Shown here piece by piece: positions 31,205-53,457 of a DNA stretch of 64,000 bases. Position 1 is the stretch's first letter. Every line of letters starts with the position of its first letter. A program made the position numbers and the translations under genes. The notes beneath the pieces are model-generated. The model did not search any database, was not told the DNA's origin, and saw only the letters and a list, made by a program, of their open reading frames with translations. The stretch covers positions 15,605 through 79,604 of the forward strand of contig JAZSQB010000023.1 of assembly GCA_045537695.1 (NCBI GenBank), written 5' to 3'. This stretch comes from Clostridia bacterium. GTDB taxonomy: Bacteria > Bacillota > Clostridia > UBA1381 > UMGS1253.

Positions 31205-31288
31205 GCGAGTGTGCTGGAATCGGCAGACAGGCACGTTTGAGGGGCGTGTGCTTATGGCGTATGGGTTCAAGTCCCATCACTCGCACCA
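31205..31288 (+). tRNA. tRNA-Leu (anticodon GAG), type II with long variable arm, CCA encoded
   Basis: Hand fold: acceptor GCGAGTG/CACTCGC, D region GGAATCGGCAGAC, anticodon stem CACGT/GCGTG with loop TTGAGGG, T arm ATGGG-TTCAAGT-CCCAT, discriminator A, then CCA. Confidence 0.9.
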
Positions 31289-40570: not shown

Positions 40571-41374
40571 TTAAAGTTTAAAAACTTTTTCAGCATTTAA
40601 ATGAAACAGTTTTTCATAAAACACATCTGAAAACTTCATGGACTTTAAAATTTTAAGTTCATCCGCAGCTGACCACATTGGATAGTCAGATGCAAACAAA
40701 ATCTTATCTTCTCCCCAACCCTCAAAAAGCTTCTTTACCATTGCAGTATCTTTAGCAAAGCCAAGCGTTGAGGAAGAATCTACATATAAGTTTTCAAATG
40801 CAGACAACTTGGAAAGCGCTTCGTTCCAAACGGACCAGCCGGCAAAATGCGCACCGATAACTGTCAACTTCGGAAATGTTTTTAGCACATTCAAAAGTCT
40901 GTCCGGATTGGAATAATCATAGCGGTAATCGCCTGTATGAATCAACACTGGCAAACCAAGCGCCTGACATCTTTCATAAAACGGCATACATCGCTCATCG
41001 TCAAGTGCAAATCCTTGAATATCCGGATGCATTTTAATACCGCGCAAACTAAGATTTGCCACAGCGTCTACATCTGCACGGATATCCTCACTGTCAGGAT
41101 GCATACTGCCAAGTCCAATCAGCACATCAGGATGTTCTTTTGCTTCATTTGCTATAAAATGATTAATACTGGCAACCTGATGCGGCGTTGTAGCAACGCT
41201 TTGTACCAAAAATTTGCTTATGCCTGCTTTTTTCCCTGAATCGAGTAATTGCTTTACTGAACCGTCAAACGCAGAATGTACATCATAGAACTTATCCGTA
41301 TGTTCTGTTGCTTTTTTAGCAATTTTTACCGGATAAATATGACAATGCGCATCAATGATATAGTGTTTTTTCAT
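40571..41374 (-). CDS. amidohydrolase_2-type metal-dependent TIM-barrel hydrolase
   Basis: IIDAHCHIYP..., HTGD, ASDYPMW. Last gene of the T-box-1 operon. Confidence 0.8.
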   Translation of the reverse strand: MKKHYIIDAHCHIYPVKIAKKATEHTDKFYDVHSAFDGSVKQLLDSGKKAGISKFLVQSVATTPHQVASINHFIANEAKEHPDVLIGLGSMHPDSEDIRADVDAVANLSLRGIKMHPDIQGFALDDERCMPFYERCQALGLPVLIHTGDYRYDYSNPDRLLNVLKTFPKLTVIGAHFAGWSVWNEALSKLSAFENLYVDSSSTLGFAKDTAMVKKLFEGWGEDKILFASDYPMWSAADELKILKSMKFSDVFYEKLFHLNAEKVFKL

Positions 41375-41392
41375 TCGTGTCACTTACCTGAA

Positions 41393-41926
41393 TTAATAGT
41401 TTTTACCGAGCTCTAAAGCACCGACATTGACTTCAAGCATATCCGCACGCTTAGCGGATACAACCTTGCCAAGAGTAGCTCTGATAGAATTTTCATCATA
41501 CATGCCGAGTGTCTCTAAAAGCTTACCGGTCATAATCATATTTGCAAGAGTATCAATCTTGTTTTCAGAAGCAAGCTTTGTTGCCGGAATATAAACAACA
41601 TTTACATCCGTACGCTTTACCTTGCGTTCAATCAAAGAAGATTCAACAAAAATCGTACCGCCCGGTACAACAGTATCTTCATACTTATCTAAAGACGGCA
41701 GATTCATTGCAACTAATACATCCGGCTTAGAAACGATCGGAGAACCTACCGGCATATCGCTGATAATAACGCTACAGCTTGCAGTACCACCGCGCATTTC
41801 CGGACCGTAGGACGGAAGCCAGCTTACGTTTTTATCTTCCATAAGACCTTTATATGCCAGGAATTTACCGGAGAACAAGATACCCTGTCCGCCGAAACCG
41901 GCAATCAAAATCTGTGTAGTACTCAT
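41393..41926 (-). CDS. 2-oxoacid:ferredoxin oxidoreductase, gamma subunit
   Basis: [17 protein letters not shown]...SYGPEMRGG. Confidence 0.88.
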
Positions 41927-41943
41927 AATCTTGCTCCCTCCCC

Positions 41944-42699
41944 TTATTTCTCTTCGTTTGCCGCACTTCTGTCTTTGTATACACCAAGCGGATAGTACGG
42001 AATCATCTTTTCATCCACCCATTCGAGTGCCTTCTGCGGAGTCATACCCCAGTTGGTCGGACATGTGGAAACAACTTCGATTAGAGAAAAGCCCTTGTTG
42101 TTTAACTGATTTTCAAATGCCTTCTTAATGGCTTTCTTTGCTTTTCTAACGTTTGCAACATTGTTTACGGCAACTCTTTCAAGATATTCCGGACCGTCGA
42201 GCTTGGAAAGCATCTCGCAAACCTTTACCGGATAACCGCAAGCTTCAACATCACGGCCGTACGGCGAAGTCTGTGTTACCTGACCCGGCAAGGATGTCGG
42301 TGCCATCTGACCGCCTGTCATACCGTAAATTGCGTTGTTTATAAAGATAATTGTGATATTTTCATTTCTTGCTGCGGAATGTACAGTTTCAGCCATACCG
42401 ATGGAAGCGAGGTCACCGTCACCCTGGTATGTAAATACCACATGTTCTTCCGGATTTGCACGCTTCAAGCCGGTAGCAACCGCCGGTGCACGACCGTGCG
42501 CTGCTTCAACCATATCGCAGTTAAAATAGTTGTATGCCATTACGGAGCAGCCAACCGGTGCTACGCCGATTGTTCTACCCTCAATGCCTAATTCATCAAT
42601 AACTTCAGCAACCAAACGGTGCACAATGCCGTGGGTACAACCCGGGCAATAATGCAGAGGTACATCTGCCAAAGCTTCAGGTTTCTTAAATACTACCAT
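41944..42699 (-). CDS. 2-oxoacid:ferredoxin oxidoreductase, beta (TPP-binding) subunit
   Basis: YCPGCTHG, GDGDLASIG and NNAIYGMTGGQ TPP motifs. Confidence 0.9.
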   Translation of the reverse strand: MVVFKKPEALADVPLHYCPGCTHGIVHRLVAEVIDELGIEGRTIGVAPVGCSVMAYNYFNCDMVEAAHGRAPAVATGLKRANPEEHVVFTYQGDGDLASIGMAETVHSAARNENITIIFINNAIYGMTGGQMAPTSLPGQVTQTSPYGRDVEACGYPVKVCEMLSKLDGPEYLERVAVNNVANVRKAKKAIKKAFENQLNNKGFSLIEVVSTCPTNWGMTPQKALEWVDEKMIPYYPLGVYKDRSAANEEK

Positions 42700-43775
42700 T
42701 ATTTCGCACCTCCGTTTTCGCTAACTTCCTTAATTTTTGCCAATACCTGTTCCGGCGTAACAATCATGCCGCCGACTCTGTTGCAGAGGTGTACCGGCTT
42801 TTTAAACTGTGTTGCAATCTGAACATCTTCAATCATCTGGCCCATAGAAAGTTCAACCGAAATAAAGGATTTTACCTTATCAGCAGCTGCTAAAAGCGGC
42901 TTTTTCGGGAACGGCCAAAGTGTAATTGGGCGGATTAAACCAACCTTAATGCCCTGCTTTCTTGCTTCAACAATTGCATTTTTGGATACACGCGCTGCAA
43001 TACCGAAAGCAACGATGCAGTATTCAGCATCATCCATCATGTATTCTTCATACATAACTTCGTTTTCTTCGATCTGCTTATAACGCTCATATCTTGCAAT
43101 ATTGAGCTGTTCGAGTTCTTCTGGAACGAGAGAAAGCGAGTTGATAATGTTGTGTTTTCTGCCCTTCTTTGTACCGGTTACTGCCCACGGCTTTTCAATC
43201 GGATCGGACGGCTTGATATCCAAGGATACCGGCTCCATCATCTGACCCATAGTACCGTCAGCCAAAATCATTGCAGTCATACGGTACTTATCTGCTAAAT
43301 CAAAGCCCTTGACTGTCATATCCGCCATTTCCTGTACGGAAGCCGGCGCCAGAACGATCATACGGAAGTCACCGTGACCTGCGCCGCGTGTTGCCTGGAA
43401 ATAGTCAGACTGGGACGGCTGAATACCACCAAGTCCAGGACCGCCGCGCTGTACGTTAACAACTAAGGACGGCAAGTCAGAACCTGCCAGATACGAAAGA
43501 CCTTCAGCCTTTAAAGAAATACCCGGGCTGGAGGAAGAGGTCATAACACGCATACCGGTCGATGCTACACCGTATACCATGTTAATTGCAGCAACTTCAC
43601 TCTCTGCCTGTAAAAATGTACCGCCGATTTTCGGCATTCTCTTTGCCATGTAAGCAGCAATTTCTGTCTGCGGCGTAATCGGATAACCGAAATAAAAACG
43701 GCAACCCGCCATAATCGCAGCTTCTGCGATTGCTTCATTACCTTTCATCAATGCTTTATCTGCCATTTTGCTCAC
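42699..43775 (-). CDS. 2-oxoacid:ferredoxin oxidoreductase, alpha subunit (VorB/KorA-like)
   Basis: KGNEAIAEAAIMAGCRFYFGYPITPQTEI. Stop/start overlap with the beta subunit. Confidence 0.9.
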   Translation of the reverse strand: MSKMADKALMKGNEAIAEAAIMAGCRFYFGYPITPQTEIAAYMAKRMPKIGGTFLQAESEVAAINMVYGVASTGMRVMTSSSSPGISLKAEGLSYLAGSDLPSLVVNVQRGGPGLGGIQPSQSDYFQATRGAGHGDFRMIVLAPASVQEMADMTVKGFDLADKYRMTAMILADGTMGQMMEPVSLDIKPSDPIEKPWAVTGTKKGRKHNIINSLSLVPEELEQLNIARYERYKQIEENEVMYEEYMMDDAEYCIVAFGIAARVSKNAIVEARKQGIKVGLIRPITLWPFPKKPLLAAADKVKSFISVELSMGQMIEDVQIATQFKKPVHLCNRVGGMIVTPEQVLAKIKEVSENGGAK

Positions 43776-43982
43776 TCACCTTTCTACCGTAATAATGCAA
43801 TCCGGACACATAATTGCACAGGATGCACAGCCTACACAGGCATCCATGTTCACCGCTTCAACCGGATGATGTCCTTTTGCGTTGATTTTGTCTTTAGAAA
43901 TCGCCAAAACCTCTTTCGGGCAAGCGTTTACACAAAGTCCGCAGCCCTTACAAAGATCAGTTCTGAAACTTAATTTTGCCAT
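43776..43982 (-). CDS. 2-oxoacid:ferredoxin oxidoreductase, delta subunit (2x[4Fe-4S] ferredoxin)
   Basis: 68 aa with [12 protein letters not shown] and [12 protein letters not shown]. Confidence 0.85.
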
Positions 43983-44011: not shown

Positions 44012-44680
44012 TTAAATAATTTTATCTTGTAAATCCAGTGCAAATAGATTGTCAATCTTGTCTGCAAGTGCATCATAGAGCGATGCTTTTACGGTTGTCA
44101 ATTTTACCGGAATACCGCACACTTTAGAAATTTCTTCTACAAAAGGTATGGATTCAAGCACCTGCTCCGGCGTTGTTTCCTCCCCTAAATTTGAATTGTT
44201 AATGATTGCCGTAAAAGGTATCTTTGAAGCCGTTTCAATCTCACGAATAACCTCTAACATGTCCTCTAAATTTCTTGTAAGCGGTCGGTATGCATTAACA
44301 ACCAAAAACATTTCATAGTTGTTTTCTTCTTTAATTGCATCCGAAAGTCTGCCGAGTGCAAGTGCGCCGCGATCATCACCGCCAATGTCTACAATCGCAT
44401 AGCAATCACGTTTTTCTATTATGCGATACATTTCCTGCGGCAGCGCCGGAATGTCTACATTGGAATTTGCATACGGTGAACAAATCAGCTCTATTCCCGC
44501 TGCATCTAATTCTTTTTGACTGTCTTTTGTGCGGAAGTACGGGTTGACAATATCAATATCGGCAATCAATACATCCTCACCCCTGCGCTTTAAATCAAAT
44601 GCAAGATTCACGGCGATATTGGTTTTGCCACTGCCGTAATGTCCCGACAAAAGAAGTACACGCTTATCTGACATTGTCAT
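44012..44680 (-). CDS. MinD/ParA/CooC-like P-loop ATPase
   Basis: Deviant Walker [14 protein letters not shown] and Walker B IADID. 222 aa, lying 6 nt after the synthetase stop. Confidence 0.7.
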
Positions 44681-44686
44681 CCCCCA

Positions 44687-46993
44687 TTAAAGCTTATTTC
44701 TCTGAATCTTACCGCTGACGGTCTTCGGCAGACTGTCGCGGAATACAACAATTCGCGGATACTTATACGGCGCTGTTCTTTCCTTGACATAATTCTGAAT
44801 TTCTTTCTTCAGCTCATCCGTGCCTTCTTTGCCGTTTACAAGCACGATGCTTGCTTTGACAACCTGACCTCTTACCTCGTCCGGTTCAGCAGATACACCA
44901 CATTCCAGCACGTACGGAAGCTCCATAATAACACTTTCAATTTCAAATGGTCCGATGCGGTAGCCGGAGGACTTAATAACGTCATCCACGCGACCTACGT
45001 ACCAGTAGAAACCGTCTTCATCCATCCATGCAGTATCACCGGTATGGTAATAGCCGTCATGCATAACTTCTGCAGTTTTCTCTGCATCGCCGTGATAGCC
45101 GACAAATAGACCGCAAGGCATGCCGTCCTCAATACGGATTACAATCTCGCCTGTTTCGCCGACAGCAACATCGTTGCCTTCTGCATCAACTAACTTTACA
45201 TCATATATCGGACTCGGTTTACCCATGGAACCGATTTTGTGGTCAGCACCGTAAAGGTTGCCGATAATCATTGTGCTTTCACTCTGACCGAAGCCTTCCA
45301 GAATCTGAAGACCCGTTACCTTCTCAAATTGGCGGTAAACCTCCGGATTGAGCGCCTCGCCTGCTGTTGTCATATGTTCTACTGAGGATAAATCGTATTT
45401 AGAAATATCCTGCTTTATAAGCATACGCAGCATTGTCGGCGGTGCGCAGAAGGTTGTAATGTGATGCTTTGCAAACATCGGCAGGATTTCTGCCGCGTCA
45501 AAGCGGTCAAAGTCGTACACAAACGTTGCGGCTTCGCAGAGCCATTGGCCGTAGAGTTTACCCCACATGGACTTCGCCCAGCCGGTATCGGAAATGGTAA
45601 AGTGTAATCCTTCCGGATTTACACAATGCCAGTACTTCGCTGTATGGAAATGACCGAGCGGATATTTGTAGTTATGCGCCGCAAGTTTCGGGTAACCGGA
45701 TGTGCCGGATGTGAAGAACATCAGCATCAAATCATCACCACAAGGTGCATCTTCGGCTCTCTCAAAGTGCGTACTATACATCATATATTCATCGTTAAAA
45801 TCTCTCCAGCCGTCACGCACGCCGCCAACTATAATTTTGTTGACGAGCTGAGGACACTTATCAGCAACTAAATCAATCTGATGCGCAGTGTCACCATCTG
45901 CAGTACAAATAACCGTTTTGATGTTCGCTGCATTAAATCTGTACTCAAAATCATGCTCCTGCAGCTGATTTGTTGCCGGAATTGCAATTGCACCGAGCTT
46001 GTTAAGTGCCATCATCGCAAACCAGAACTGATAGTGACGCTTGAGTACAAGCATTACGGTATCGCCACGTTTGATACCGATAGCTTTAAAGTAGTTCGCG
46101 CATCTGTTCGACGCTTTACTGATATCAGAAAAGGTAAATCTTCTCTCTGTCTTTTCCCTGTCAATATGCAACATCGCAAGCTTATCCGGCTTTGTTCTAG
46201 CAAGCTCATCTACAACATCGAAAGCAAAGTTGAACTTCTCTGTGTTTTTAAATGTAATGGAAGTAGGTGTACCGGCTTCGTTTTTTACAACATCTACATA
46301 CTTGTTATATACGCGTTTTGTTTTGCGGATTTCCGGGTTTTCCATCGAAGCGGACTTCTTATGCGTTTCCGGCTCTTTCTTCGGCTGGAGTTCCGGAATC
46401 GGCTCCCCTGTCGGGTTAAGTACAATCGCGTAGAACAAGCAATCCTGACCGTCTACGGCAATCATACCGTGCGGCGTGGAAGAATCGTAGTATATGCTGT
46501 CTCCCGGGCCTAAGACAACGCTGTGGCTGCCTACTTGAACCTTTAAATGTCCCTGGATAATAATATCGCATTCCTGACCGTTATGGGTTGTCAGTTCAAT
46601 ATCACGTCTCTCTGCCTCCGGGTCATACTCGCTCTTTACATAAAGCGGCTCGGCAATTCTGTTTTTAAATGCAGATGCTAAATTGTAGTATACCATGCCG
46701 TGTGCCTGCTCAATCTTCTGACCGCCGCCGGCACGTGTTACCGTATAAGATTTCAGTTTTGGGCTGGAACCTTCAATAATATCGGTGACATCGACATTAA
46801 ATGCTAGCGCGCAACGGTAAATAAAAGCAAAGTTTAAATCGCTTTCCCCATTTTCACAGCGCAGATATTCTTCGACAGAAACATCCGTCTTTTGTGCCAT
46901 ATCATCGACAGATAAGCCAATAATTTCGCGCAGCTCGCGGATTCTGCCTGCCATTTCTTTAATTTTGAAGTCAAGTCCTGTAATTTGTTTCAT
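44687..46993 (-). CDS. fusion protein: XRE-type HTH + cupin + AMP-forming acyl-CoA synthetase (paralog 1)
   Basis: 768 aa from MKQITG (AGGAGG RBS). HTH RIRELREIIGLSVDDMAQKTDVSVEEYLRCENG. Cupin region HNGQECDIIIQGHLKVQVG...PHGM. ANL motifs FTSGTSGYPK, GFGQSE, YHTGD, GRVDDVIKSSGYRIGPFEIE and PKTVSGKIQR. Confidence 0.88.
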   Translation of the reverse strand: MKQITGLDFKIKEMAGRIRELREIIGLSVDDMAQKTDVSVEEYLRCENGESDLNFAFIYRCALAFNVDVTDIIEGSSPKLKSYTVTRAGGGQKIEQAHGMVYYNLASAFKNRIAEPLYVKSEYDPEAERRDIELTTHNGQECDIIIQGHLKVQVGSHSVVLGPGDSIYYDSSTPHGMIAVDGQDCLFYAIVLNPTGEPIPELQPKKEPETHKKSASMENPEIRKTKRVYNKYVDVVKNEAGTPTSITFKNTEKFNFAFDVVDELARTKPDKLAMLHIDREKTERRFTFSDISKASNRCANYFKAIGIKRGDTVMLVLKRHYQFWFAMMALNKLGAIAIPATNQLQEHDFEYRFNAANIKTVICTADGDTAHQIDLVADKCPQLVNKIIVGGVRDGWRDFNDEYMMYSTHFERAEDAPCGDDLMLMFFTSGTSGYPKLAAHNYKYPLGHFHTAKYWHCVNPEGLHFTISDTGWAKSMWGKLYGQWLCEAATFVYDFDRFDAAEILPMFAKHHITTFCAPPTMLRMLIKQDISKYDLSSVEHMTTAGEALNPEVYRQFEKVTGLQILEGFGQSESTMIIGNLYGADHKIGSMGKPSPIYDVKLVDAEGNDVAVGETGEIVIRIEDGMPCGLFVGYHGDAEKTAEVMHDGYYHTGDTAWMDEDGFYWYVGRVDDVIKSSGYRIGPFEIESVIMELPYVLECGVSAEPDEVRGQVVKASIVLVNGKEGTDELKKEIQNYVKERTAPYKYPRIVVFRDSLPKTVSGKIQRNKL

Positions 46994-47036: not shown

Positions 47037-47320
47037 TAAAAATCGCCCGTCCCAAGCTGATTGAACTTGGGACGAGCGTTGCATATACTGCCTACCCGCG
47101 GTACCACCCAAATTGCAACGCAAATTTGCGTTACCACTCATCGGAATCTAACAATTCCTGCGCCATTACGTTGCGCTGACGGGAAGGTTCTACTTGCATG
47201 CGCTTTCTTCCTTCCAGCTCTGAAGCTACAGCCATTCAAGTCGGATTTCGACGGCTCGCACCAAACGCCGCTTCTCTGAGTCTTCCTTCTTGACGCACTC
47301 TTCGTCAATGCCTTTATTTA
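47037..47320 (-). promoter_or_regulatory. T-box riboswitch leader 1 (controls 44687-46993 and downstream operon)
   Basis: Minus strand shows Stem I with GACGAAG, an AGAGA bulge, a distal GGUGCGA loop and an AGUAGA box. The T-box 5'-AAUUUGGGUGGUACCGCG-3' lies at plus 47097-47114. The terminator CGUCCCAAG-N9-CUUGGGACG plus U-run lies right before the RBS. Confidence 0.9.
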
Positions 47321-47323
47321 AAC

Positions 47324-47352
47324 ATTATAGTACATTCTATGTTGAAAGTCAA
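47324..47352 (-). promoter_or_regulatory. promoter of T-box leader 1 (TTGACT-17-TATAAT)
   Basis: Hexamers on the minus strand with a 17-nt spacer, 35 nt after the stop of paralog 2. Confidence 0.7.
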
Positions 47353-47387
47353 CTGTTTTTTTGCGAATTTAAGCCATTTTTCGCATT

Positions 47388-49658
47388 TTAGAGTTTGTTT
47401 CTCTGAATCTTACCGCTAATGGTTTTCGGTAATTCATCGCGGAATACAACAATACGCGGATATTTGTACGGTGCCGTTCTTTCCTTAACATAATTTTGAA
47501 TTTCTTTCTTAAGCTCATCCGTGCCTTCTGTACCCTTCGTAAGCACGATGCTCGCTTTTACAACCTGACCTCTTACTTCGTCAGGCTCAGCAGATACGCC
47601 ACATTCAAGCACATACGGAAGCTCCATAATAACACTCTCGATTTCAAAAGGTCCAATGCGGTAGCCGGAAGACTTAATTACGTCATCCACACGACCAACA
47701 TACCAGTAGAAGCCGTCTTCATCCTTCCAAGCGGTGTCACCGGTGTGATAATAACCATCGTGCCACGCTTCGTTGGTCTTTTCTTCGTTCAGATAATAGC
47801 CACTGAACAGACCGCACGGTACATTTTCGCTTGTCTTAATAACAATTTCTCCTGTTTCACCAACGCCCGCCGGTGTGCCATCCGGCAATTGAATGTCTAC
47901 ATCGTACATCGGACTCGGTTTACCCATCGAGCCAAGCTTATGTTTGTTACCGCGCAAATTCGCGATAACGAGTGTTGTTTCTGTCTGTCCGAAGCCTTCG
48001 CGGATACGCAGACCAGTTGCTTTTTCAAATGCTCTGTATACTTCCGGATTGAGTGCTTCGCCCGCAGTTGTCATACGCTTGATGGAAGACAGATCGTAGT
48101 TGGAAATATCCTGTTTAACAAGCATGCGCAGCATAGTAGGCGGCGCACAAAATGTTGTAATCTGATACTTTGCAAACATTGGCAGGATGTCAGATGCATC
48201 AAAGCGGTCAAAGTCATACGTAAACACTGCCCCTTCACAAAGCCACTGTCCGTAGAACTTACCCCAAAGCGCTTTCCCCCAACCCGTGTCGGAGATAGTA
48301 AAGTGAATACCATCTCTGTATACGCCGTGCCAGTATTTTGCCGTAATAAAATGACCGAGCGCATAACGGTAGCTCTGTGTCGCAATTTTGGGATAACCAG
48401 TTGTACCGGAAGTGAAAAACATAATCATCGGGTCTGTGCCGCACGGTGTATCTTCACTTCTTTCAAATTTACCGGTAAACAGACTGTAGTTTTCATCAAA
48501 ATCGTGCCAGTCCTCTCGGTTGCCACCTACCAAAATCTTGGTTTTCAGCGTCGGACTTTTCCGTTGCGCGCTATCCACCTGCTCAGCCGTATTTCCGTCA
48601 GCCGTACACAAAATCGCACTCACGCCTGCGGCGTTAAAACGATATTCAAAATCGTGCTCCTGCAGCTGATTGGTCGCCGGAATTGCAATTGCACCAAGTT
48701 TATGCAAACCAAGCATCGCAAACCAGAACTGGTAATGACGTTTGAGCACAACCATCACTCTGTCGCCTTTTTTGATGCCAAGTGATTTAAAGTAGTTTGC
48801 ACACTGGGCAGAGGCACGTTTCATATCTTTAAAAGTAAATCTTCTTTCGGTTTTATTTACATCCAGATGCAGCATCGCAAGCTTGTCAGGATATTTATCC
48901 GCAATTTCATCCACAACGTCGAACGCAAAATTAAATTTATCATCGTCTGTAAAGTCAATCGATTTAAGCGCACCGTTTTCTTCTTCAGTTGTATGGATGA
49001 ACTTCTCACAAATCAAAGCCTCGGATTTACCGGCAGAAACTACGCTGTCACGAATAATATCTTCTGATGTTTCTTCACCGGATACAACTACGGCTAAAAA
49101 GAGACAGTCTTTGCCATCCACGGCAATCATACCATGCGGAATGGAGCTATTGTAGAAGATACTATCACCTTCATGCAGAATTTCAGTATTTTCACCAATC
49201 TGCACCTTGAGGCTGCCTGAAATAATTAAGTCAAACTCCTGACCGCTGTGTGTTGTCAGATGTATCGGACGGTTCTGCTGATCAGCGTTGTATTCATAGA
49301 GCACCGAATACGGCTCTGCGAGCTTATTTTTAAAGCGCGGTGCCAGGTTTTTAATATCAATGCCGTCTTCTTTCGCCGTCTGCTGACCATGGTCTTTTCT
49401 TGTAATTGTATACGAAGACAGAAAAGTTGCGCTTTGACCTTCCAGAATATCAGACATTCCGACATCGAATACCAATGCACACTTATGAATAAAGCTGAAC
49501 GGAAAATCAATCTCGCCCGCTTCATAGCGCAGATATTCGCCAACACTGACTTCTGTCTTCCGTGCTGTTTCTTCAATACTTAAACCGGCAATTTCGCGAG
49601 CTTCACGAATTCTGCCTGCGATTTCAAACAGCTTTGTTTTTGTTGTGGATGTTTCCAT
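47388..49658 (-). CDS. fusion protein: XRE-type HTH + cupin + AMP-forming acyl-CoA synthetase (paralog 2)
   Basis: 756 aa from METSTTK (gggagg RBS). Same three-domain layout, with FTSGTTGYPK, GFGQTE, YHTGD, GRVDDVIKSSGYRIGPFEIE and PKTISGKIQR. Confidence 0.88.
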   Translation of the reverse strand: METSTTKTKLFEIAGRIREAREIAGLSIEETARKTEVSVGEYLRYEAGEIDFPFSFIHKCALVFDVGMSDILEGQSATFLSSYTITRKDHGQQTAKEDGIDIKNLAPRFKNKLAEPYSVLYEYNADQQNRPIHLTTHSGQEFDLIISGSLKVQIGENTEILHEGDSIFYNSSIPHGMIAVDGKDCLFLAVVVSGEETSEDIIRDSVVSAGKSEALICEKFIHTTEEENGALKSIDFTDDDKFNFAFDVVDEIADKYPDKLAMLHLDVNKTERRFTFKDMKRASAQCANYFKSLGIKKGDRVMVVLKRHYQFWFAMLGLHKLGAIAIPATNQLQEHDFEYRFNAAGVSAILCTADGNTAEQVDSAQRKSPTLKTKILVGGNREDWHDFDENYSLFTGKFERSEDTPCGTDPMIMFFTSGTTGYPKIATQSYRYALGHFITAKYWHGVYRDGIHFTISDTGWGKALWGKFYGQWLCEGAVFTYDFDRFDASDILPMFAKYQITTFCAPPTMLRMLVKQDISNYDLSSIKRMTTAGEALNPEVYRAFEKATGLRIREGFGQTETTLVIANLRGNKHKLGSMGKPSPMYDVDIQLPDGTPAGVGETGEIVIKTSENVPCGLFSGYYLNEEKTNEAWHDGYYHTGDTAWKDEDGFYWYVGRVDDVIKSSGYRIGPFEIESVIMELPYVLECGVSAEPDEVRGQVVKASIVLTKGTEGTDELKKEIQNYVKERTAPYKYPRIVVFRDELPKTISGKIQRNKL

Positions 49659-49717
49659 TTTTCTCTTACCTCCCATAAAAGGTTCTCAAAATTTTGCTTT
49701 CGACGGTTTTTTACATT

Positions 49718-49975
49718 AAAAAAACCGTCTCAAAGTTTTCTTTGAGACGGGTGAAATTTCACTCGCGGTACCACTCAAATTGCAGTTAAACTGCCACTCG
49801 TCGGAATCTATCAATTCCTGTGCACTGACGTAGCATACACGGGAAACGTCTACTCGCTTTCACTTTCGGGTTTCCGGCTCAGAAGGGATAGGTATTTGAA
49901 AAGTTTGTCATTGACTCGCACCAACCGTCAACTCTCTGGAGACGCTACAGTTCAACCGTCTTCGTCACAGCCTAT
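49718..49975 (-). promoter_or_regulatory. T-box riboswitch leader 2 (controls 47388-49658)
   Basis: Minus strand shows GACGAAG, AGAGA, a GGUGCGA distal loop and AGUAGA. The T-box 5'-AAUUUGAGUGGUACCGCG-3' lies at plus 49764-49781. The terminator is CCGUCUCAAAG-AAAA-CUUUGAGACGG plus U7. Confidence 0.9.
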
Positions 49976-49981
49976 GAATGT

Positions 49982-50030: not shown

Positions 50031-50065
50031 CAAAAAATGTCCCGATACATGCGGTATCGGGACAT
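50031..50065 (-). terminator. terminator of the oxaloacetate decarboxylase operon
   Basis: Perfect 12-bp stem ATGTCCCGATAC-N5-GTATCGGGACAT followed on the minus strand by UUUUUG. Confidence 0.85.
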
Positions 50066-50069
50066 TAAA

Positions 50070-51515
50070 TTATTTAATCGGGTAATCTTTGGAGTCCATG
50101 TCGATATATTCAACATCAAATGCAGCTTTTGCCGGTGCTGCTTCAGCAGCCGGTGCGCTCTGCTCAACCTTCGGCGCCTTTCTGTGCTCAAAGTACTTCA
50201 TGGCAACCGGGCCGAACAGTGCATAGGACAATACATCCTCGTCCTGCTCTACGTAATCCTTGATTTCTTCTCTGAGCTTGTCAATTTCCGGCTCGAGTTT
50301 ATCTGCCGGACGGCAGGTAATTCTTTCTTCATCACCGATAACCTTCTTTACGATTTCATCGCTGATCGGAACCGGCGTCTGACCGTACTCACCGCGCACA
50401 ATACCTTTTGTTTCCTTGGTGATCATCTTATAACGCTCACCCATCAAAACGTTAAGCACTGCCTGTGTGCCGACAATCTGGCTCGACGGTGTAACGAGCG
50501 GCGGGAAACCTAAATCTTCACGCACGCGCGGTACTTCCTTGAGTACGTCCATAAACTTTCCTTCCTGACCCTGCTGCTTGAGCTGGGATACGAGGTTCGA
50601 GAGCATACCGCCCGGCACCTGGTAACGCAGTGTGTTAACATCCACACCCATAACCTTCGGGTCCATAAGACCACTCTTAAGGTATTCTTCACGAAGCGGT
50701 CTGAAGTAGTCTGCAATCTCACTTAAGAGGTCAAGATCAAGGCCTGTGTCATACTCTGTACCCTGCAATGCAGCAACCATCGGCTCTGTAGCCGGCTGGG
50801 ATGTACCAAGTGCGAGCGGAGACATAGCACAGTCGATTACGTCTATACCTGCTTCAATTGCCTTTAAGTAGGTCATCGAAGCCTCACCGCTTGTGTAGTG
50901 TGTATGCAGCTGAATCGGAATTTTAATTTCTTCCTTCATCGCTTTTACAAGGTCATATGCAGTATACGGAAGCAAAAGTGCAGCCATATCCTTGATGCAA
51001 ATGGAGTCCGCACCCATTTCTTCCAGCTGCTTTGCGAGCTTTACGAAAGACTCAATGTTGTGCACCGGGCTGATGGTGTAACATACAGTTGCCTGTACGT
51101 GTGCTTTTGCCTGATTGGCAGCTTTGATTGCCGCCTCCAGGTTTCTTGGGTCATTAAGTGCGTCGAAGATACGTAAGATATCAATACCATTATCTACGGA
51201 TTTCTTAACGAAGTAATCTACAACATCATCTGCATAATGTCTGTAACCGAGAATATTCTGACCGCGGAACAGCATCTGCAATTTCGTATTCTTAGCCTTA
51301 TCCTTAATCTTTCTTAAACGCTCCCATGGGTCTTCGTTTAAGAAGCGCAGGCAGGAGTCAAATGTAGCACCGCCCCATGCCTCTAAGGAATGATAGCCAA
51401 CTTTATCTAATTTTTCAACAATCGGAAGCATTTCTTCCGTTGTCATACGCGTAGCAATCAAAGACTGATGCGCGTCTCTTAATATGGTTTCAGTAATTTT
51501 AACCGGTTTTGCCAT
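50070..51515 (-). CDS. oadA: oxaloacetate decarboxylase alpha subunit, carboxyltransferase part only (no biotinyl domain)
   Basis: ITETILRDAHQSL...HTHYTSG. HMGL-like TIM barrel plus the PYC_OADA region. Ends without an AMKM biotin motif. Confidence 0.88.
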   Translation of the reverse strand: MAKPVKITETILRDAHQSLIATRMTTEEMLPIVEKLDKVGYHSLEAWGGATFDSCLRFLNEDPWERLRKIKDKAKNTKLQMLFRGQNILGYRHYADDVVDYFVKKSVDNGIDILRIFDALNDPRNLEAAIKAANQAKAHVQATVCYTISPVHNIESFVKLAKQLEEMGADSICIKDMAALLLPYTAYDLVKAMKEEIKIPIQLHTHYTSGEASMTYLKAIEAGIDVIDCAMSPLALGTSQPATEPMVAALQGTEYDTGLDLDLLSEIADYFRPLREEYLKSGLMDPKVMGVDVNTLRYQVPGGMLSNLVSQLKQQGQEGKFMDVLKEVPRVREDLGFPPLVTPSSQIVGTQAVLNVLMGERYKMITKETKGIVRGEYGQTPVPISDEIVKKVIGDEERITCRPADKLEPEIDKLREEIKDYVEQDEDVLSYALFGPVAMKYFEHRKAPKVEQSAPAAEAAPAKAAFDVEYIDMDSKDYPIK

Positions 51516-51553
51516 ATTTAGTTACCTCCCCTATATTTAAATTAACAGCCGAA

Positions 51554-52738
51554 CTACTTAAGCATCGACAGGAATACGCCAGCTGCTACCGCAGAACCAA
51601 TAACACCAGCAACATTCGGACCCATAGCGTGCATCAAAAGAAAGTTCTTTGGATTTGCTTCTTGACCAACCTTTTGCGATACACGCGCTGCCATCGGTAC
51701 AGCTGATACACCAGCAGAACCGATAAGCGGATTTATTTTTCCCTTTGTCAGGAAGCACATCAGCTTACCCAACAATAAGCCGCCTGCAGTCGAGAACGCA
51801 AACGCAACAATACCAAGACCAATAATCATCAAGGTCTGCGGTCTTAAGAACGCATCCGCTGTTGCAGTTGCGCCAACCGTTGTGCCAAGAAAAATTGTGA
51901 TAATGTTCATCAATTCATTCTGTGCAGTCTTGCTGATTCTGTCTGTTACGCCACATTCTTTTGCAAGATTACCAAGCATTAACATACCAACTAGCGGAAT
52001 TGCATCCGGTACAATCAAACCAACAACTACAGTTACTGCAATCGGGAAAATGATTTTTTCCGTCTTGGAAACTGGACGAAGCTGCTCCATCACAATCATA
52101 CGCTCTTTCTTTGTGGTCATCAGCTTCATAATCGGCTTCTGAATAACTTCAATCAGTGCCATATAGGAATAAGCCGCAATCGCAATTGCAGAAAGCAAAT
52201 GCGGTGCCAAAGTCTTTGTAATATAAATCGCTGTCGGACCGTCCGCACCACCAATAATACCGATAGAGCCTGCCTCTTGCGGTGTAAAGCCAAGCAGAAG
52301 TGCTGCTGCAAAGGTGAAGAACACACCAAACTGAGCAGCTGCACCCAAAAGAATGCTCTTTGGATTTGCAATCAGCGGACCGAAGTCAGTCATCGCACCG
52401 ACACCCAAGAAAATAAGCGGCGGATAAATACCGAGCTTAACACCTAGGTACAAAAGGTCTAAAAGACCGCCTTCTTTTAATACTTTGCCATAATCAATCG
52501 TTTCGCCTGTATACCAATCCGGATGCATAATGTCCGCTGCCTGTGGCAGATTCGCCAAAAGCATACCAAACGCAATCGGCAAAAGCAGTAGCGGTTCAAA
52601 TTTTTTAGCAATCGCAAGATAAATTAAAACAAAAGCAATCAGGAGCATTGCAATTGTTTTTACGCCGTCAACCCAACCGTTTGCAAACAGCAGGTTGAAA
52701 CCGGTCGTCGCCATAAATTCAGCGAGAAACTGTTGCAT
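51554..52738 (-). CDS. oadB: Na+-transporting decarboxylase beta subunit
   Basis: 394 aa, polytopic, with the OadB/GcdB/MmdB pattern ([14 protein letters not shown]...[10 protein letters not shown]...). Confidence 0.9.
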
Positions 52739-52770
52739 TGTATATCACTCACCTCTAAAGTCATATAATA

Positions 52771-53127
52771 TTAGCCAATTGTTACGAGAACATCGCCTGT
52801 ATTTACAGTGGATCCCTTTGTTGTGTTTACAGCGGAAATTGTGCCATCACACGGAGCAAGAATTTCGTTTTCCATCTTCATAGCTTCAAGAATAACGAGA
52901 ACTTCACCAGACTTCACACTCTGTCCTGCAGAAACCTTAATATCCAAAATGTTACCCGGCATCGGCGCTGTTACCGCATTTGCACCAGCCGGCACAGCCG
53001 TCGGAACCGGTGCCGCAGCCGGTGCTTCTGTCTTTGCTGCAGAGATAGGTGCGTTTGTTACGCCAGTAGCTTCTTCTACTTCTACGTTATAAACATTACC
53101 GTTTACTTTTACTACAAAATTCTTCAT
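52771..53127 (-). CDS. biotin carboxyl-carrier subunit of the decarboxylase
   Basis: Ala/Pro linker and LEAMKMENEI biotinylation motif. GGAGG RBS before MKNFVVK. Confidence 0.85.
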   Translation of the reverse strand: MKNFVVKVNGNVYNVEVEEATGVTNAPISAAKTEAPAAAPVPTAVPAGANAVTAPMPGNILDIKVSAGQSVKSGEVLVILEAMKMENEILAPCDGTISAVNTTKGSTVNTGDVLVTIG

Positions 53128-53169
53128 TTTTCTTTCCTCCAAATCTCCAATAAAACTTTAAATTTTCCC

Positions 53170-53457
53170 TTATTTACTCCAAAGTACGTTTCCGCTTTGA
53201 TCCTTAATGGATTTCACGCGAAGCCGCTTATTGGGATCATCACCGCTCATTGCTGCAACCGTTGCAGAAATCACTGCAATTGTTTCGTTTGCATCAATCG
53301 CATCGGCTGGTGCCGGTGCCGGTGCTGATTTCTCCGCGTCTGCTTTCTTGCCGAACAGTTGCATCAGACAGATTACAACCATTAATATAACCAGAACAGC
53401 AAATACGATCAGCATACCCATACCAGTATAAAGCAACCCTAAGTTTAAGCTATCCAT
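53170..53457 (-). CDS. small OadG-like membrane subunit
   Basis: 95 aa with a single N-terminal TM helix (GMGMLIVFAVLVILMVVI) followed by an Ala/Pro-rich tail. First gene of the oad operon. Confidence 0.7.
   Translation of the reverse strand: MDSLNLGLLYTGMGMLIVFAVLVILMVVICLMQLFGKKADAEKSAPAPAPADAIDANETIAVISATVAAMSGDDPNKRLRVKSIKDQSGNVLWSK

Follow-up and report, generated by a model that had tools for sequence, protein, structure and literature searches.

We analyzed a 64,000-nt stretch of DNA (the window) from a Clostridia bacterium (GTDB UBA1381; UMGS1253; assembly GCA_045537695.1, contig JAZSQB010000023.1, positions 15,605-79,604), which contains one conserved gene array in which two T-box leaders each precede an acyl-CoA ligase gene and every feature lies on the minus strand. 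The array starts at a promoter-like site, P2 (49982..50010), which reads TTGACA-17-TATTAT, matches the consensus at 11 of 12 positions and serves leader 2 (49740..49977). Alignment of this leader, of the Ile class, to the T-box family RF00230 delineated a Stem I with a K-turn, an AGAGA bulge and a GGUGCGA distal loop, a Stem II/III, and the T-box sequence with the antiterminator. Its specifier codon, AUC (Ile; 49887..49889), precedes C49886 and then the CUUC strand of the lower helix (49885-49882); the antiterminator bulge, read from the sequence, is UGGU (49770..49773), and the terminator scan placed an intrinsic terminator with an 11-bp stem and a U7 run at about 49718..49750. The gene behind it, ligI (47388..49658), encodes an Ile-class acyl-CoA ligase of 756 residues, an HTH-cupin-AMP-ligase fusion (Pfam HTH_3, Cupin_2, AMP-binding and AMP-binding_C) with the motif TGWGKALWGK.

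Leader 1 (47065..47317), which belongs to the Val class and was aligned over the full RF00230 model, is served by the promoter-like site P1 (47324..47352; TTGACT-17-TATAAT, 11 of 12 matches). It carries the specifier codon GUA (Val; 47227..47229), followed by G47226 and CUUC (47225-47222), a UGGU bulge read from the sequence at 47103..47106, and, by the terminator scan, an intrinsic terminator with a 15-bp stem and a U run (47044..47078). The downstream gene, ligV (44687..46993), encodes a Val-class ligase of 768 residues with the same Pfam domain set as ligI and the motif TGWAKSMWGK. In both ligases, the N-terminal ~230 residues (48960-49658 and 46300-46993, minus strand) form an XRE-type HTH plus cupin region fused to the acyl-CoA ligase. 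Next follow a ParA/MinD-like P-loop ATPase (44012..44680; Pfam CbiA and ParA) and a four-subunit 2-oxoacid:ferredoxin oxidoreductase (41393..43982; Pfam POR_N, PFOR_II, TPP_enzyme_C, POR and Fer4), made up of the delta, 2x[4Fe-4S] ferredoxin subunit (43982-43776), the VorB-type alpha subunit (43775-42699), the thiamine pyrophosphate (TPP)-binding beta subunit (42699-41944) and the gamma subunit (41926-41393). The alpha subunit scored 546.8 bits against NF005507 (3-methyl-2-oxobutanoate dehydrogenase subunit VorB; cut-off, 399), and the composition expected of a 2-ketoisovalerate:ferredoxin oxidoreductase (VOR) is complete, with Pfam domains for all four subunits and an alpha subunit passing the VorB model. 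The ATPase gene sits between ligV and delta in most related loci, and its product gave weak matches to the models of Mrp and ApbC (Fe-S cluster carrier), which suggests a possible role in oxidoreductase maturation.

T-box genes switch on when their cognate tRNA is uncharged, i.e., when the amino acid is short. Against RF00230, leader 1 scored 85.2 bits (E = 2.5e-18) and leader 2 scored 84.5 bits (E = 3.7e-18), with model positions 1-219 covered, well outside what chance would give. Both were found in E-value mode; the gathering score of the family is 93 bits, and Rfam at that threshold gave no match. The E-value scan detected no T-box in the window besides these two. For comparison with relatives, a genome scan for the ligase pair found 577 relatives, and the best 80 loci, all from gut and rumen Oscillospirales metagenome-assembled genomes, were used; with a profile built from the two leaders, these loci usually yielded two full-length leaders each, for a total of 138. 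Two orthologous leaders from one of these loci (L060) reach 93.3 and 108.8 bits against RF00230.

The AG bulge, AGAGA, is located at 47277-47273 and 49937-49933 and is followed in both leaders by UUGGUGCGAG, and across the orthologue alignments AGAGA and the GGUGNRA distal loop are near-invariant. The K-turn base, UGA-C-GAAG ... CUUC-N-GAGC, is conserved, and the UGGU bulge is present in 138 of 138 orthologous leaders. The UGGN bulge of T-boxes covaries with the tRNA discriminator, and UGGU pairs with an ACCA 3' end, which predicts A73. The T-box sequences GGGUGGUACCGCG and GAGUGGUACCGCG are present in the window leaders. In both of them the RF00230 alignment and the terminator scan showed that the terminator (47078-47044 and 49750-49725, each with a U run) shares its 3' strand with the antiterminator, making the two hairpins mutually exclusive. 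A P2-like site (at least 10 of 12 matches) lies upstream of 73 of the 75 Ile-class leaders and a P1-like site upstream of 59 of the 63 Val-class leaders, compared with 8 of 240 control windows. Each leader is an independent attenuator that has a separate sigma-70-type promoter and a separate terminator. These results establish the T-box identity of both leaders, which are members of the family in every tested feature except a narrowly missed score threshold and an absent S-turn.

A preliminary description of this locus had assigned the specifier codons from a lower helix, GAAG/CUUC, shared by the two leaders (47303-47300 with 47225-47222 and 49963-49960 with 49885-49882), and from upper helices reading UCAAG/CUUGA in leader 1 (47293-47289 with 47240-47236) and UUGAA/UUCAA in leader 2 (49955-49951 with 49900-49896). 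All of these helices are present. The minus-strand sequence also bears out the loop strands described between them, AUGGCUGUAG (47235-47226) and AUACCUAUCC (49895-49886), which differ at five of ten positions. GUA and AUC were found at the coordinates claimed for them (47229-47227 and 49889-49887), and the reading of both antiterminator bulges as UGGU (47106-47103 and 49773-49770) was confirmed. When the leaders were aligned to the covariance model, the RF00230 codon columns landed on GUA+G and AUC+C, in agreement with that assignment.

We then compared the codon column across the orthologues, using an alignment anchored on the lower helix and taking as the codon the three bases ending one nt before it. 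The column held AUC in 75 leaders, GUA in 59 and GUC in 4, so that AUC or GUA/GUC occupies it in 138 of 138 leaders with no exceptions. The sole within-class codon change, from GUA to GUC, is synonymous. AUC was followed by A in 39 of the 75 Ile-class leaders, by C in 29 and by G in 7; in the Val class the next base was always a purine (G in 50 and A in 9 after GUA, A in all 4 after GUC). The lower helix was paired in 100% of sequences, including the variants GAGG/CCUC, GGAG/CUCC, GGGG/CCCC and AAAG/CUUU, with both-side changes at three of its four pairs, and these compensatory variants fix the register. RNAalifold proposed another lower-helix register for the Ile class, pairing part of the codon, which was rejected as wrong, since the explicit register is 100% paired with compensatory changes. 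Over Stem I, standard pairs filled 94% of cells among the 75 Ile-class orthologues (both-side changes at 17 of 21 pairs) and 90% among the 63 Val-class orthologues (18 of 21), and pairing fell from these values to 24-48% when the 3' partners were shifted by one to three columns. These comparisons settle the frame and establish the position and identity of the two codons.

The same covariation altered one element of the preliminary description. Its 10-nt 3' loop strand was not upheld, as the upper helix extends toward the codon and leaves ~4-6 nt. Judged from the 75 and 63 orthologous leaders, the upper helix gains GC/GC in leader 1 and GG/CC in leader 2. For the Ile class, G18/G19 are matched by C93/Y94, and the next pairs changed on both sides 31 times (20-91) and 32 times (21-90); for the Val class, covariation links positions 19-23 with 86-90. 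What is left as the specifier loop is internal, small and asymmetric, consisting of 5'-A(C/A) with 3'-AUC-N in the Ile class, with Y before AUC in some leaders, and of 5'-AGN with 3'-N-U-GUA-R in the Val class. A GAA in leader 1 (47237-47235) lies partly in the CUUGA helix strand and partly in the loop, and it is missing from other Val-class leaders. Two caveats raised earlier, the lack of a conserved AGUA/GAA S-turn and the C after AUC in the window, hold up.

To calibrate the positional rule on genes of known specificity, we scanned related metagenomes with a pattern that fixes the skeleton and leaves the codon free, TGACGAAGA ... CUUC-N-GAG ... GUGGUACCGCG, and identified the downstream genes with NCBIfam. 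The scan returned 124 leaders, carrying AUC (92), GUA (13), CUC (10), AUG (6) and one each of GUU, GUC and UAC. GUA+G precedes a valine-tRNA ligase gene (valS; L161), and AUC precedes two isoleucine-tRNA ligase genes (ileS; AUC+A in L184 and AUC+C in L160), a threonine ammonia-lyase gene (ilvA; L114), a branched-chain aminotransferase gene (ilvE; L151) and a BrnQ-type carrier gene (brnQ; L092). AUG+G is found before an O-acetylhomoserine sulfhydrylase gene (metY; L097) and CUC+A before a 2-isopropylmalate synthase gene (leuA; L146). Because cognate codons precede genes of known specificity, the positional codon rule holds in this lineage. Of the two ileS leaders, L160 has a canonical AGUA/GAA S-turn yet C after AUC, and L184 has a compact loop without the S-turn (5'-AC, 3'-AUCA), as in leader 2; the valS leader keeps the AGUA/GAA S-turn, as L160 does. 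Since synthetase leaders of one skeleton differ in having this element, the S-turn is probably dispensable or replaced in part of this lineage. The L060 leader with 108.8 bits, a divergent canonical T-box with an S-turn in front of a ligV orthologue, gave GUC+G at high posterior.

We next examined whether the codons follow the ligases. ligI and ligV are 66% identical overall and 75% identical in their ligase domains. In a neighbor-joining tree of 128 full-length ligases, one split separated the 53 located behind GUA/GUC from the 75 located behind AUC, demonstrating strict co-variation of the codons with two ligase clades. The preliminary description had proposed that the duplicated ligases were sub-functionalized to different amino acids; at the level of regulation this is shown by the agreement of specifier and clade in 128 of 128 ligases. 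Eleven alignment columns are class specific, nine of them in the HTH-cupin domain and two in the ligase domain. Since nine of the eleven fall in the former, the HTH-cupin domain is suggested to bind a class-specific ligand. The two in the ligase domain, G461 in the Ile class versus Ala in the Val class and L464 versus Met, lie in the motif TGW[G/A]K.[L/M]W465GK, four and one residues before W465, which aligns, with a 23-residue numbering offset, with Trp259 of MacsMa. In the genome set, AUC accompanied Gly in 74 of 74 ligases and GUA/GUC accompanied Ala in 57 of 58. The single exception is the second ligase of one locus (L013:4870-6784), whose residues from about 300 to 500 are 100% identical to those of the first ligase on the same contig, which indicates a probable gene conversion between the paralogues or an assembly chimera.

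The closest solved structure to both ligases is MacsMa, the medium-chain acyl-CoA synthetase of Methanosarcina acetivorans (PDB 3ETC; ~607 bits for ligI and ligV, 607.6 for ligV, over ~520 residues), and their acyl-pocket tryptophan is conserved (W465, corresponding to MacsMa Trp259). MacsMa prefers 2-methylbutyrate, and its Trp259 was described by the depositors' group as an alternate acyl-pocket tryptophan critical for substrate binding (PMC10455477). The best NCBIfam match was MbcS (NF047394), with 420.6 and 430.5 bits, short of the equivalog cut-off of 850; judged from these scores, the ligases and MbcS are enzymes of one kind without being orthologues. MbcS selectively activates 2-methylbutyrate and isobutyrate (PMC10026030). 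At the class-specific position MacsMa has Gly, like the Ile class, and the Val class has the bulkier Ala; the substrate predicted for the Val class is one carbon smaller than that for the Ile class. We infer that ligI activates 2-methylbutyrate and ligV activates isobutyrate, an assignment supported by the VorB-type oxidoreductase downstream, the homology to MacsMa and MbcS, and the Gly/Ala change beside the pocket tryptophan. The predicted routes from 2-methylbutyrate to Ile and from isobutyrate to Val are well supported by this evidence.

The operon architecture is conserved: the position of the ATPase gene and the oxidoreductase gene order are kept in related loci, and the order [T:AUC]-ligI-[T:GUA/GUC]-ligV-ATPase-delta-alpha-beta-gamma recurs in about 55 of them. 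Variants were also observed. In three loci the second ligase gene follows the first without an intervening T-box (L032:8240-8290, L041:2940-3005 and L051:6700-6755), and seven contain a single AUC-gated ligase gene before the ATPase and oxidoreductase genes (L029, L031, L053, L066, L072, L074 and L079). A candidate internal promoter for the oxidoreductase genes (44072-44101, minus strand; TTGACA-18-TATGAT, 11 of 12 matches), which falls within the ATPase gene some 90 nt ahead of delta, was rejected, a comparable site being found in 10 of 57 loci.

Taken together, we consider it likely, with a probability of roughly 85%, that the two T-boxes form a pair in which AUC specifies Ile and GUA specifies Val, each gating its own ligase, and that the operon salvages Ile and Val from branched-chain fatty acids. 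According to this model, leader 2 would present AUC to the anticodon of tRNA-Ile and leader 1 would present GUA to that of tRNA-Val, and the uncharged 3' end (A73-CCA) would pair with UGGU, stabilize the antiterminator and allow read-through. Leader 2 would gate ligI, so that uncharged tRNA-Ile would induce the 2-methylbutyrate ligase, and leader 1 would gate ligV, the MinD-like ATPase and the VorB-type oxidoreductase, so that uncharged tRNA-Val would induce the isobutyrate ligase and the oxidoreductase. The ligases would convert 2-methylbutyrate and isobutyrate to their coenzyme A (CoA) thioesters, the oxidoreductase would reductively carboxylate these acyl-CoAs to 2-oxo-3-methylvalerate and 2-oxoisovalerate, and transamination of the 2-oxo acids would yield Ile and Val. 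Shortage of each amino acid would thereby turn on salvage of its own branched-chain fatty acid. The biosynthetic direction is favored because the genes would be induced when the amino acid runs short and because of the direction in which AMP-forming ligases work.

Several observations weigh against this model. Both window leaders score under the Rfam gathering score of 93, neither class conserves an AGUA/GAA S-turn (75 and 63 orthologous leaders), and in the window AUC is followed by C and not by a purine. RF00230 aligns the specifier loop with no more than moderate posterior (about 0.6-0.8), and in the Ile-class orthologue from L060 the model shifts to ACC+A at low posterior. Single-sequence minimum-free-energy folding misses Stem I, with z-scores of +0.9 and +1.8. 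The structures it gave for the two Stem I regions, unrelated folds with positive z-scores, were discarded as uninformative for a T-box Stem I, and the support for Stem I comes from the covariance model and the covariation, not from thermodynamic folding. No tRNA-Ile or tRNA-Val gene lies within the window. The metagenome sample is less clean than the genome set: AUC preceded ligI-like genes in 44 of 51 cases and GUA preceded ligV-like genes in 10 of 11, where typing was by crude best hit and the ligases were often truncated. Finally, the oxidoreductase genes stand behind the Val switch only, a poor fit with a response to Ile alone.

The missing S-turn, the usual anchor for the codon, bears directly on whether the specifiers lie in another frame or position, which would give Trp/Tyr (UGG/UAC), Ala/Pro (GCU/CCU), Leu/Leu (CUG/CUA), Gly (GGC) or Ser (UCC/UCN). 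Leader 1 contains GAA-U-GGC, which mimics the canonical order of GAA, one nt and codon (Gly GGC), but this GAA does not occur in other Val-class leaders. A further hint of a different frame comes from the moderate model posterior and the shift in L060; however, none of the alternative triplets is conserved, including the three pairs listed in the preliminary description (UGG/UAC, GCU/CCU and CUG/CUA), and the bases 5' of the codon either pair or vary (CAU/UAU/AAU in one class, UGU/GGU in the other). A shift by +1 in the Val class would give UAG, UAA or UCA. In the Ile class, the variable base after AUC (A in 39, C in 29 and G in 7) resembles the wobble position of a UCN codon read one base further on, but Ser would require a UGGC bulge for G73; the invariant UGGU (A73) and the identical leaders before ileS, ilvA, ilvE and brnQ exclude Ser. 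The same skeleton places AUC, GUA, AUG and CUC at this position before ileS, valS, metY and leuA. We therefore regard a different frame as very improbable.

If the codons are read correctly, the two ligases could nevertheless be equivalent generalists, with the T-boxes providing OR-type induction of one shared branched-chain acid salvage. MbcS and MacsMa each take more than one branched acid, the ligase domains of ligI and ligV are 75% identical with only two class-specific residues, and the seven loci with one AUC-gated ligase and the three with two ligases behind one T-box would fit such an arrangement. The clades are, however, distinct and tied to the specifier in 128 of 128 cases across several Oscillospirales families, and the sole class-specific residues of the ligase domain adjoin the acyl-pocket tryptophan, with Gly, as in MacsMa, in the Ile class and the bulkier Ala in the Val class; we judge generalist ligases to be unlikely, though with an appreciable chance. 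A second possibility is that the operon does not serve amino acids at all, and either provides acyl-CoA primers for membrane fatty acids or runs the oxidoreductase in the oxidative direction to break down branched-chain amino acids. [quoted passage not shown] T-box induction at amino-acid shortage would make Ile/Val catabolism or lipid priming counter-productive, AMP-forming ligases run toward the CoA thioester and would feed the reductive direction, and leaders of the same skeleton control ilvA, ilvE, brnQ, ileS and valS, all of which function in amino-acid supply. A role outside amino-acid supply thus appears quite improbable, and salvage of Ile and Val through separately gated ligases remains the preferred model.

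We compared the array with known systems. Like the RF00230 leaders of synthetase and branched-chain genes, examples of which are the ileS and valS leaders and the Bacillus subtilis ilv-leu leader with a Leu specifier, the window leaders have a Stem I K-turn, an AGAGA bulge and a GGUGNRA loop, the codon one nt before the lower helix, a UGGN bulge and a competing antiterminator and terminator, and leaders of the same skeleton stand before ileS, valS, ilvA, ilvE, brnQ, leuA and metY in related metagenomes. Unlike them, they gate acyl-CoA ligases and a 2-oxoacid:ferredoxin oxidoreductase and not synthetases, classical biosynthesis genes or transporters, their specifier loop is compact (5'-AC/3'-AUCN and 5'-AGN/3'-NU-GUA-R) and without the conserved S-turn, and they score just under the gathering score. 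Serial T-boxes of different specificity within operons, e.g., a second tRNA ligase gene with its own T-box, have been noted before (Wels et al. 2008, PMC2494555). The window shares with those operons two leaders of different specifier in series on one strand, each before its own gene; here, in contrast, the gated genes are recent paralogues of one family, and each leader has its own conserved promoter. The ligases resemble MacsMa and S. aureus MbcS in being AMP-forming enzymes for short branched acids with a conserved pocket tryptophan. They differ in the extra N-terminal HTH-cupin domain of about 230 residues, in scoring below the MbcS equivalog cut-off (about 420-430 bits versus 850), in having been duplicated to form two clades with different residues at the fourth position ahead of the pocket tryptophan, and in being linked to an oxidoreductase and not to fatty-acid synthesis.

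Classical labeling by Allison and co-workers reportedly demonstrated that rumen anaerobes reductively carboxylate branched-chain volatile fatty acids to make branched-chain amino acids. The pathway proposed here comprises the same two steps, activation of isobutyrate or 2-methylbutyrate to the CoA thioester followed by ferredoxin-dependent carboxylation, and the related loci come from rumen and gut Oscillospirales; the rumen work, however, was physiological, and the literature searched yielded no link from it to these genes or to T-box control. The search also turned up no description of acyl-CoA ligases or VOR under T-box control, nor of genes for reductive carboxylation of branched-chain acids, which is weak evidence given incomplete coverage of subscription journals. 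Public records name both ligases only "AMP-binding protein". The proposed riboswitch mechanism is a standard one, and what appears new is the set of regulated genes and the compact, S-turn-less specifier loop.

More tentatively, and with somewhat less than an even chance of being right, the operon could provide the hitherto unassigned genes by which gut and rumen Oscillospirales turn branched-chain volatile fatty acids into branched-chain amino acids, a classical conversion. Each amino acid would have a substrate-specific ligase controlled by a separate T-box, both ligases would share a VorB-type carboxylating oxidoreductase that the MinD-like ATPase matures or assists, an HTH-cupin domain sensing the cognate acid or amino acid would add a second control at the protein level, and a compact loop would present the codon without a loop-E motif. 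T-box specifiers are among the few sequence features that name directly the amino acid a gene serves, and here they turn two "AMP-binding protein" genes and the adjacent oxidoreductase into a testable assignment, 2-methylbutyrate to Ile and isobutyrate to Val. At least 577 species-level genomes of Oscillospirales from gut and rumen contain relatives of the operon. Branched-chain volatile fatty acids have long been known as growth factors of fiber-degrading rumen bacteria, and protein fermentation in the gut yields them in abundance; a handle at the gene level that carries its own regulatory read-out would aid metabolic modeling, feed-additive work and genome annotation. The paired paralogues with a Gly/Ala change beside the pocket tryptophan constitute a clean natural experiment in ligase specificity, and the compact loop, if real, would show that T-boxes are able to present a codon without the loop-E motif.

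A number of further features were observed around the array and in its relatives. The Rfam E-value scan found no Leu T-box in the window, and in six related loci a Leu T-box (CUC/CUG) lies just upstream of the Ile leader (L031:1430-5634, L044:1486-5660, L060:1396-5604, L063:3-4399, L068:1572-5650 and also L191). It gates a LeuA-like protein with HMGL and LeuA_dimer domains as well as an AMP-ligase fused to a xylose-isomerase-like TIM barrel, and in L191 it stands directly before the fusion. This fusion was rejected as a third, Leu-specific paralogue, being only 26% identical to ligI/ligV and not of the same clade. A tRNA-Leu(GAG) gene is located at 31205-31288 on the plus strand of the window (45.7 bits in Rfam E-value mode; gathering score, 29); the gathering-threshold run omitted it even though it scores above threshold, and an empty result in that mode does not equal absence. 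Upstream of leader 2, ORF translations from 50070-53457 (minus strand) revealed a cluster resembling a membrane decarboxylase of the oxaloacetate or methylmalonyl-CoA type, with a 481-residue carboxyltransferase-like protein, a 394-residue membrane subunit, a 123-residue biotin carrier and a 95-residue small subunit, and a strong bidirectional terminator (50036-50066) closes this cluster. Directly after the gamma subunit gene, an Amidohydro_2-family protein is encoded at 40571-41383 (minus strand), and L068 contains a homologue near the array, but upstream of it.

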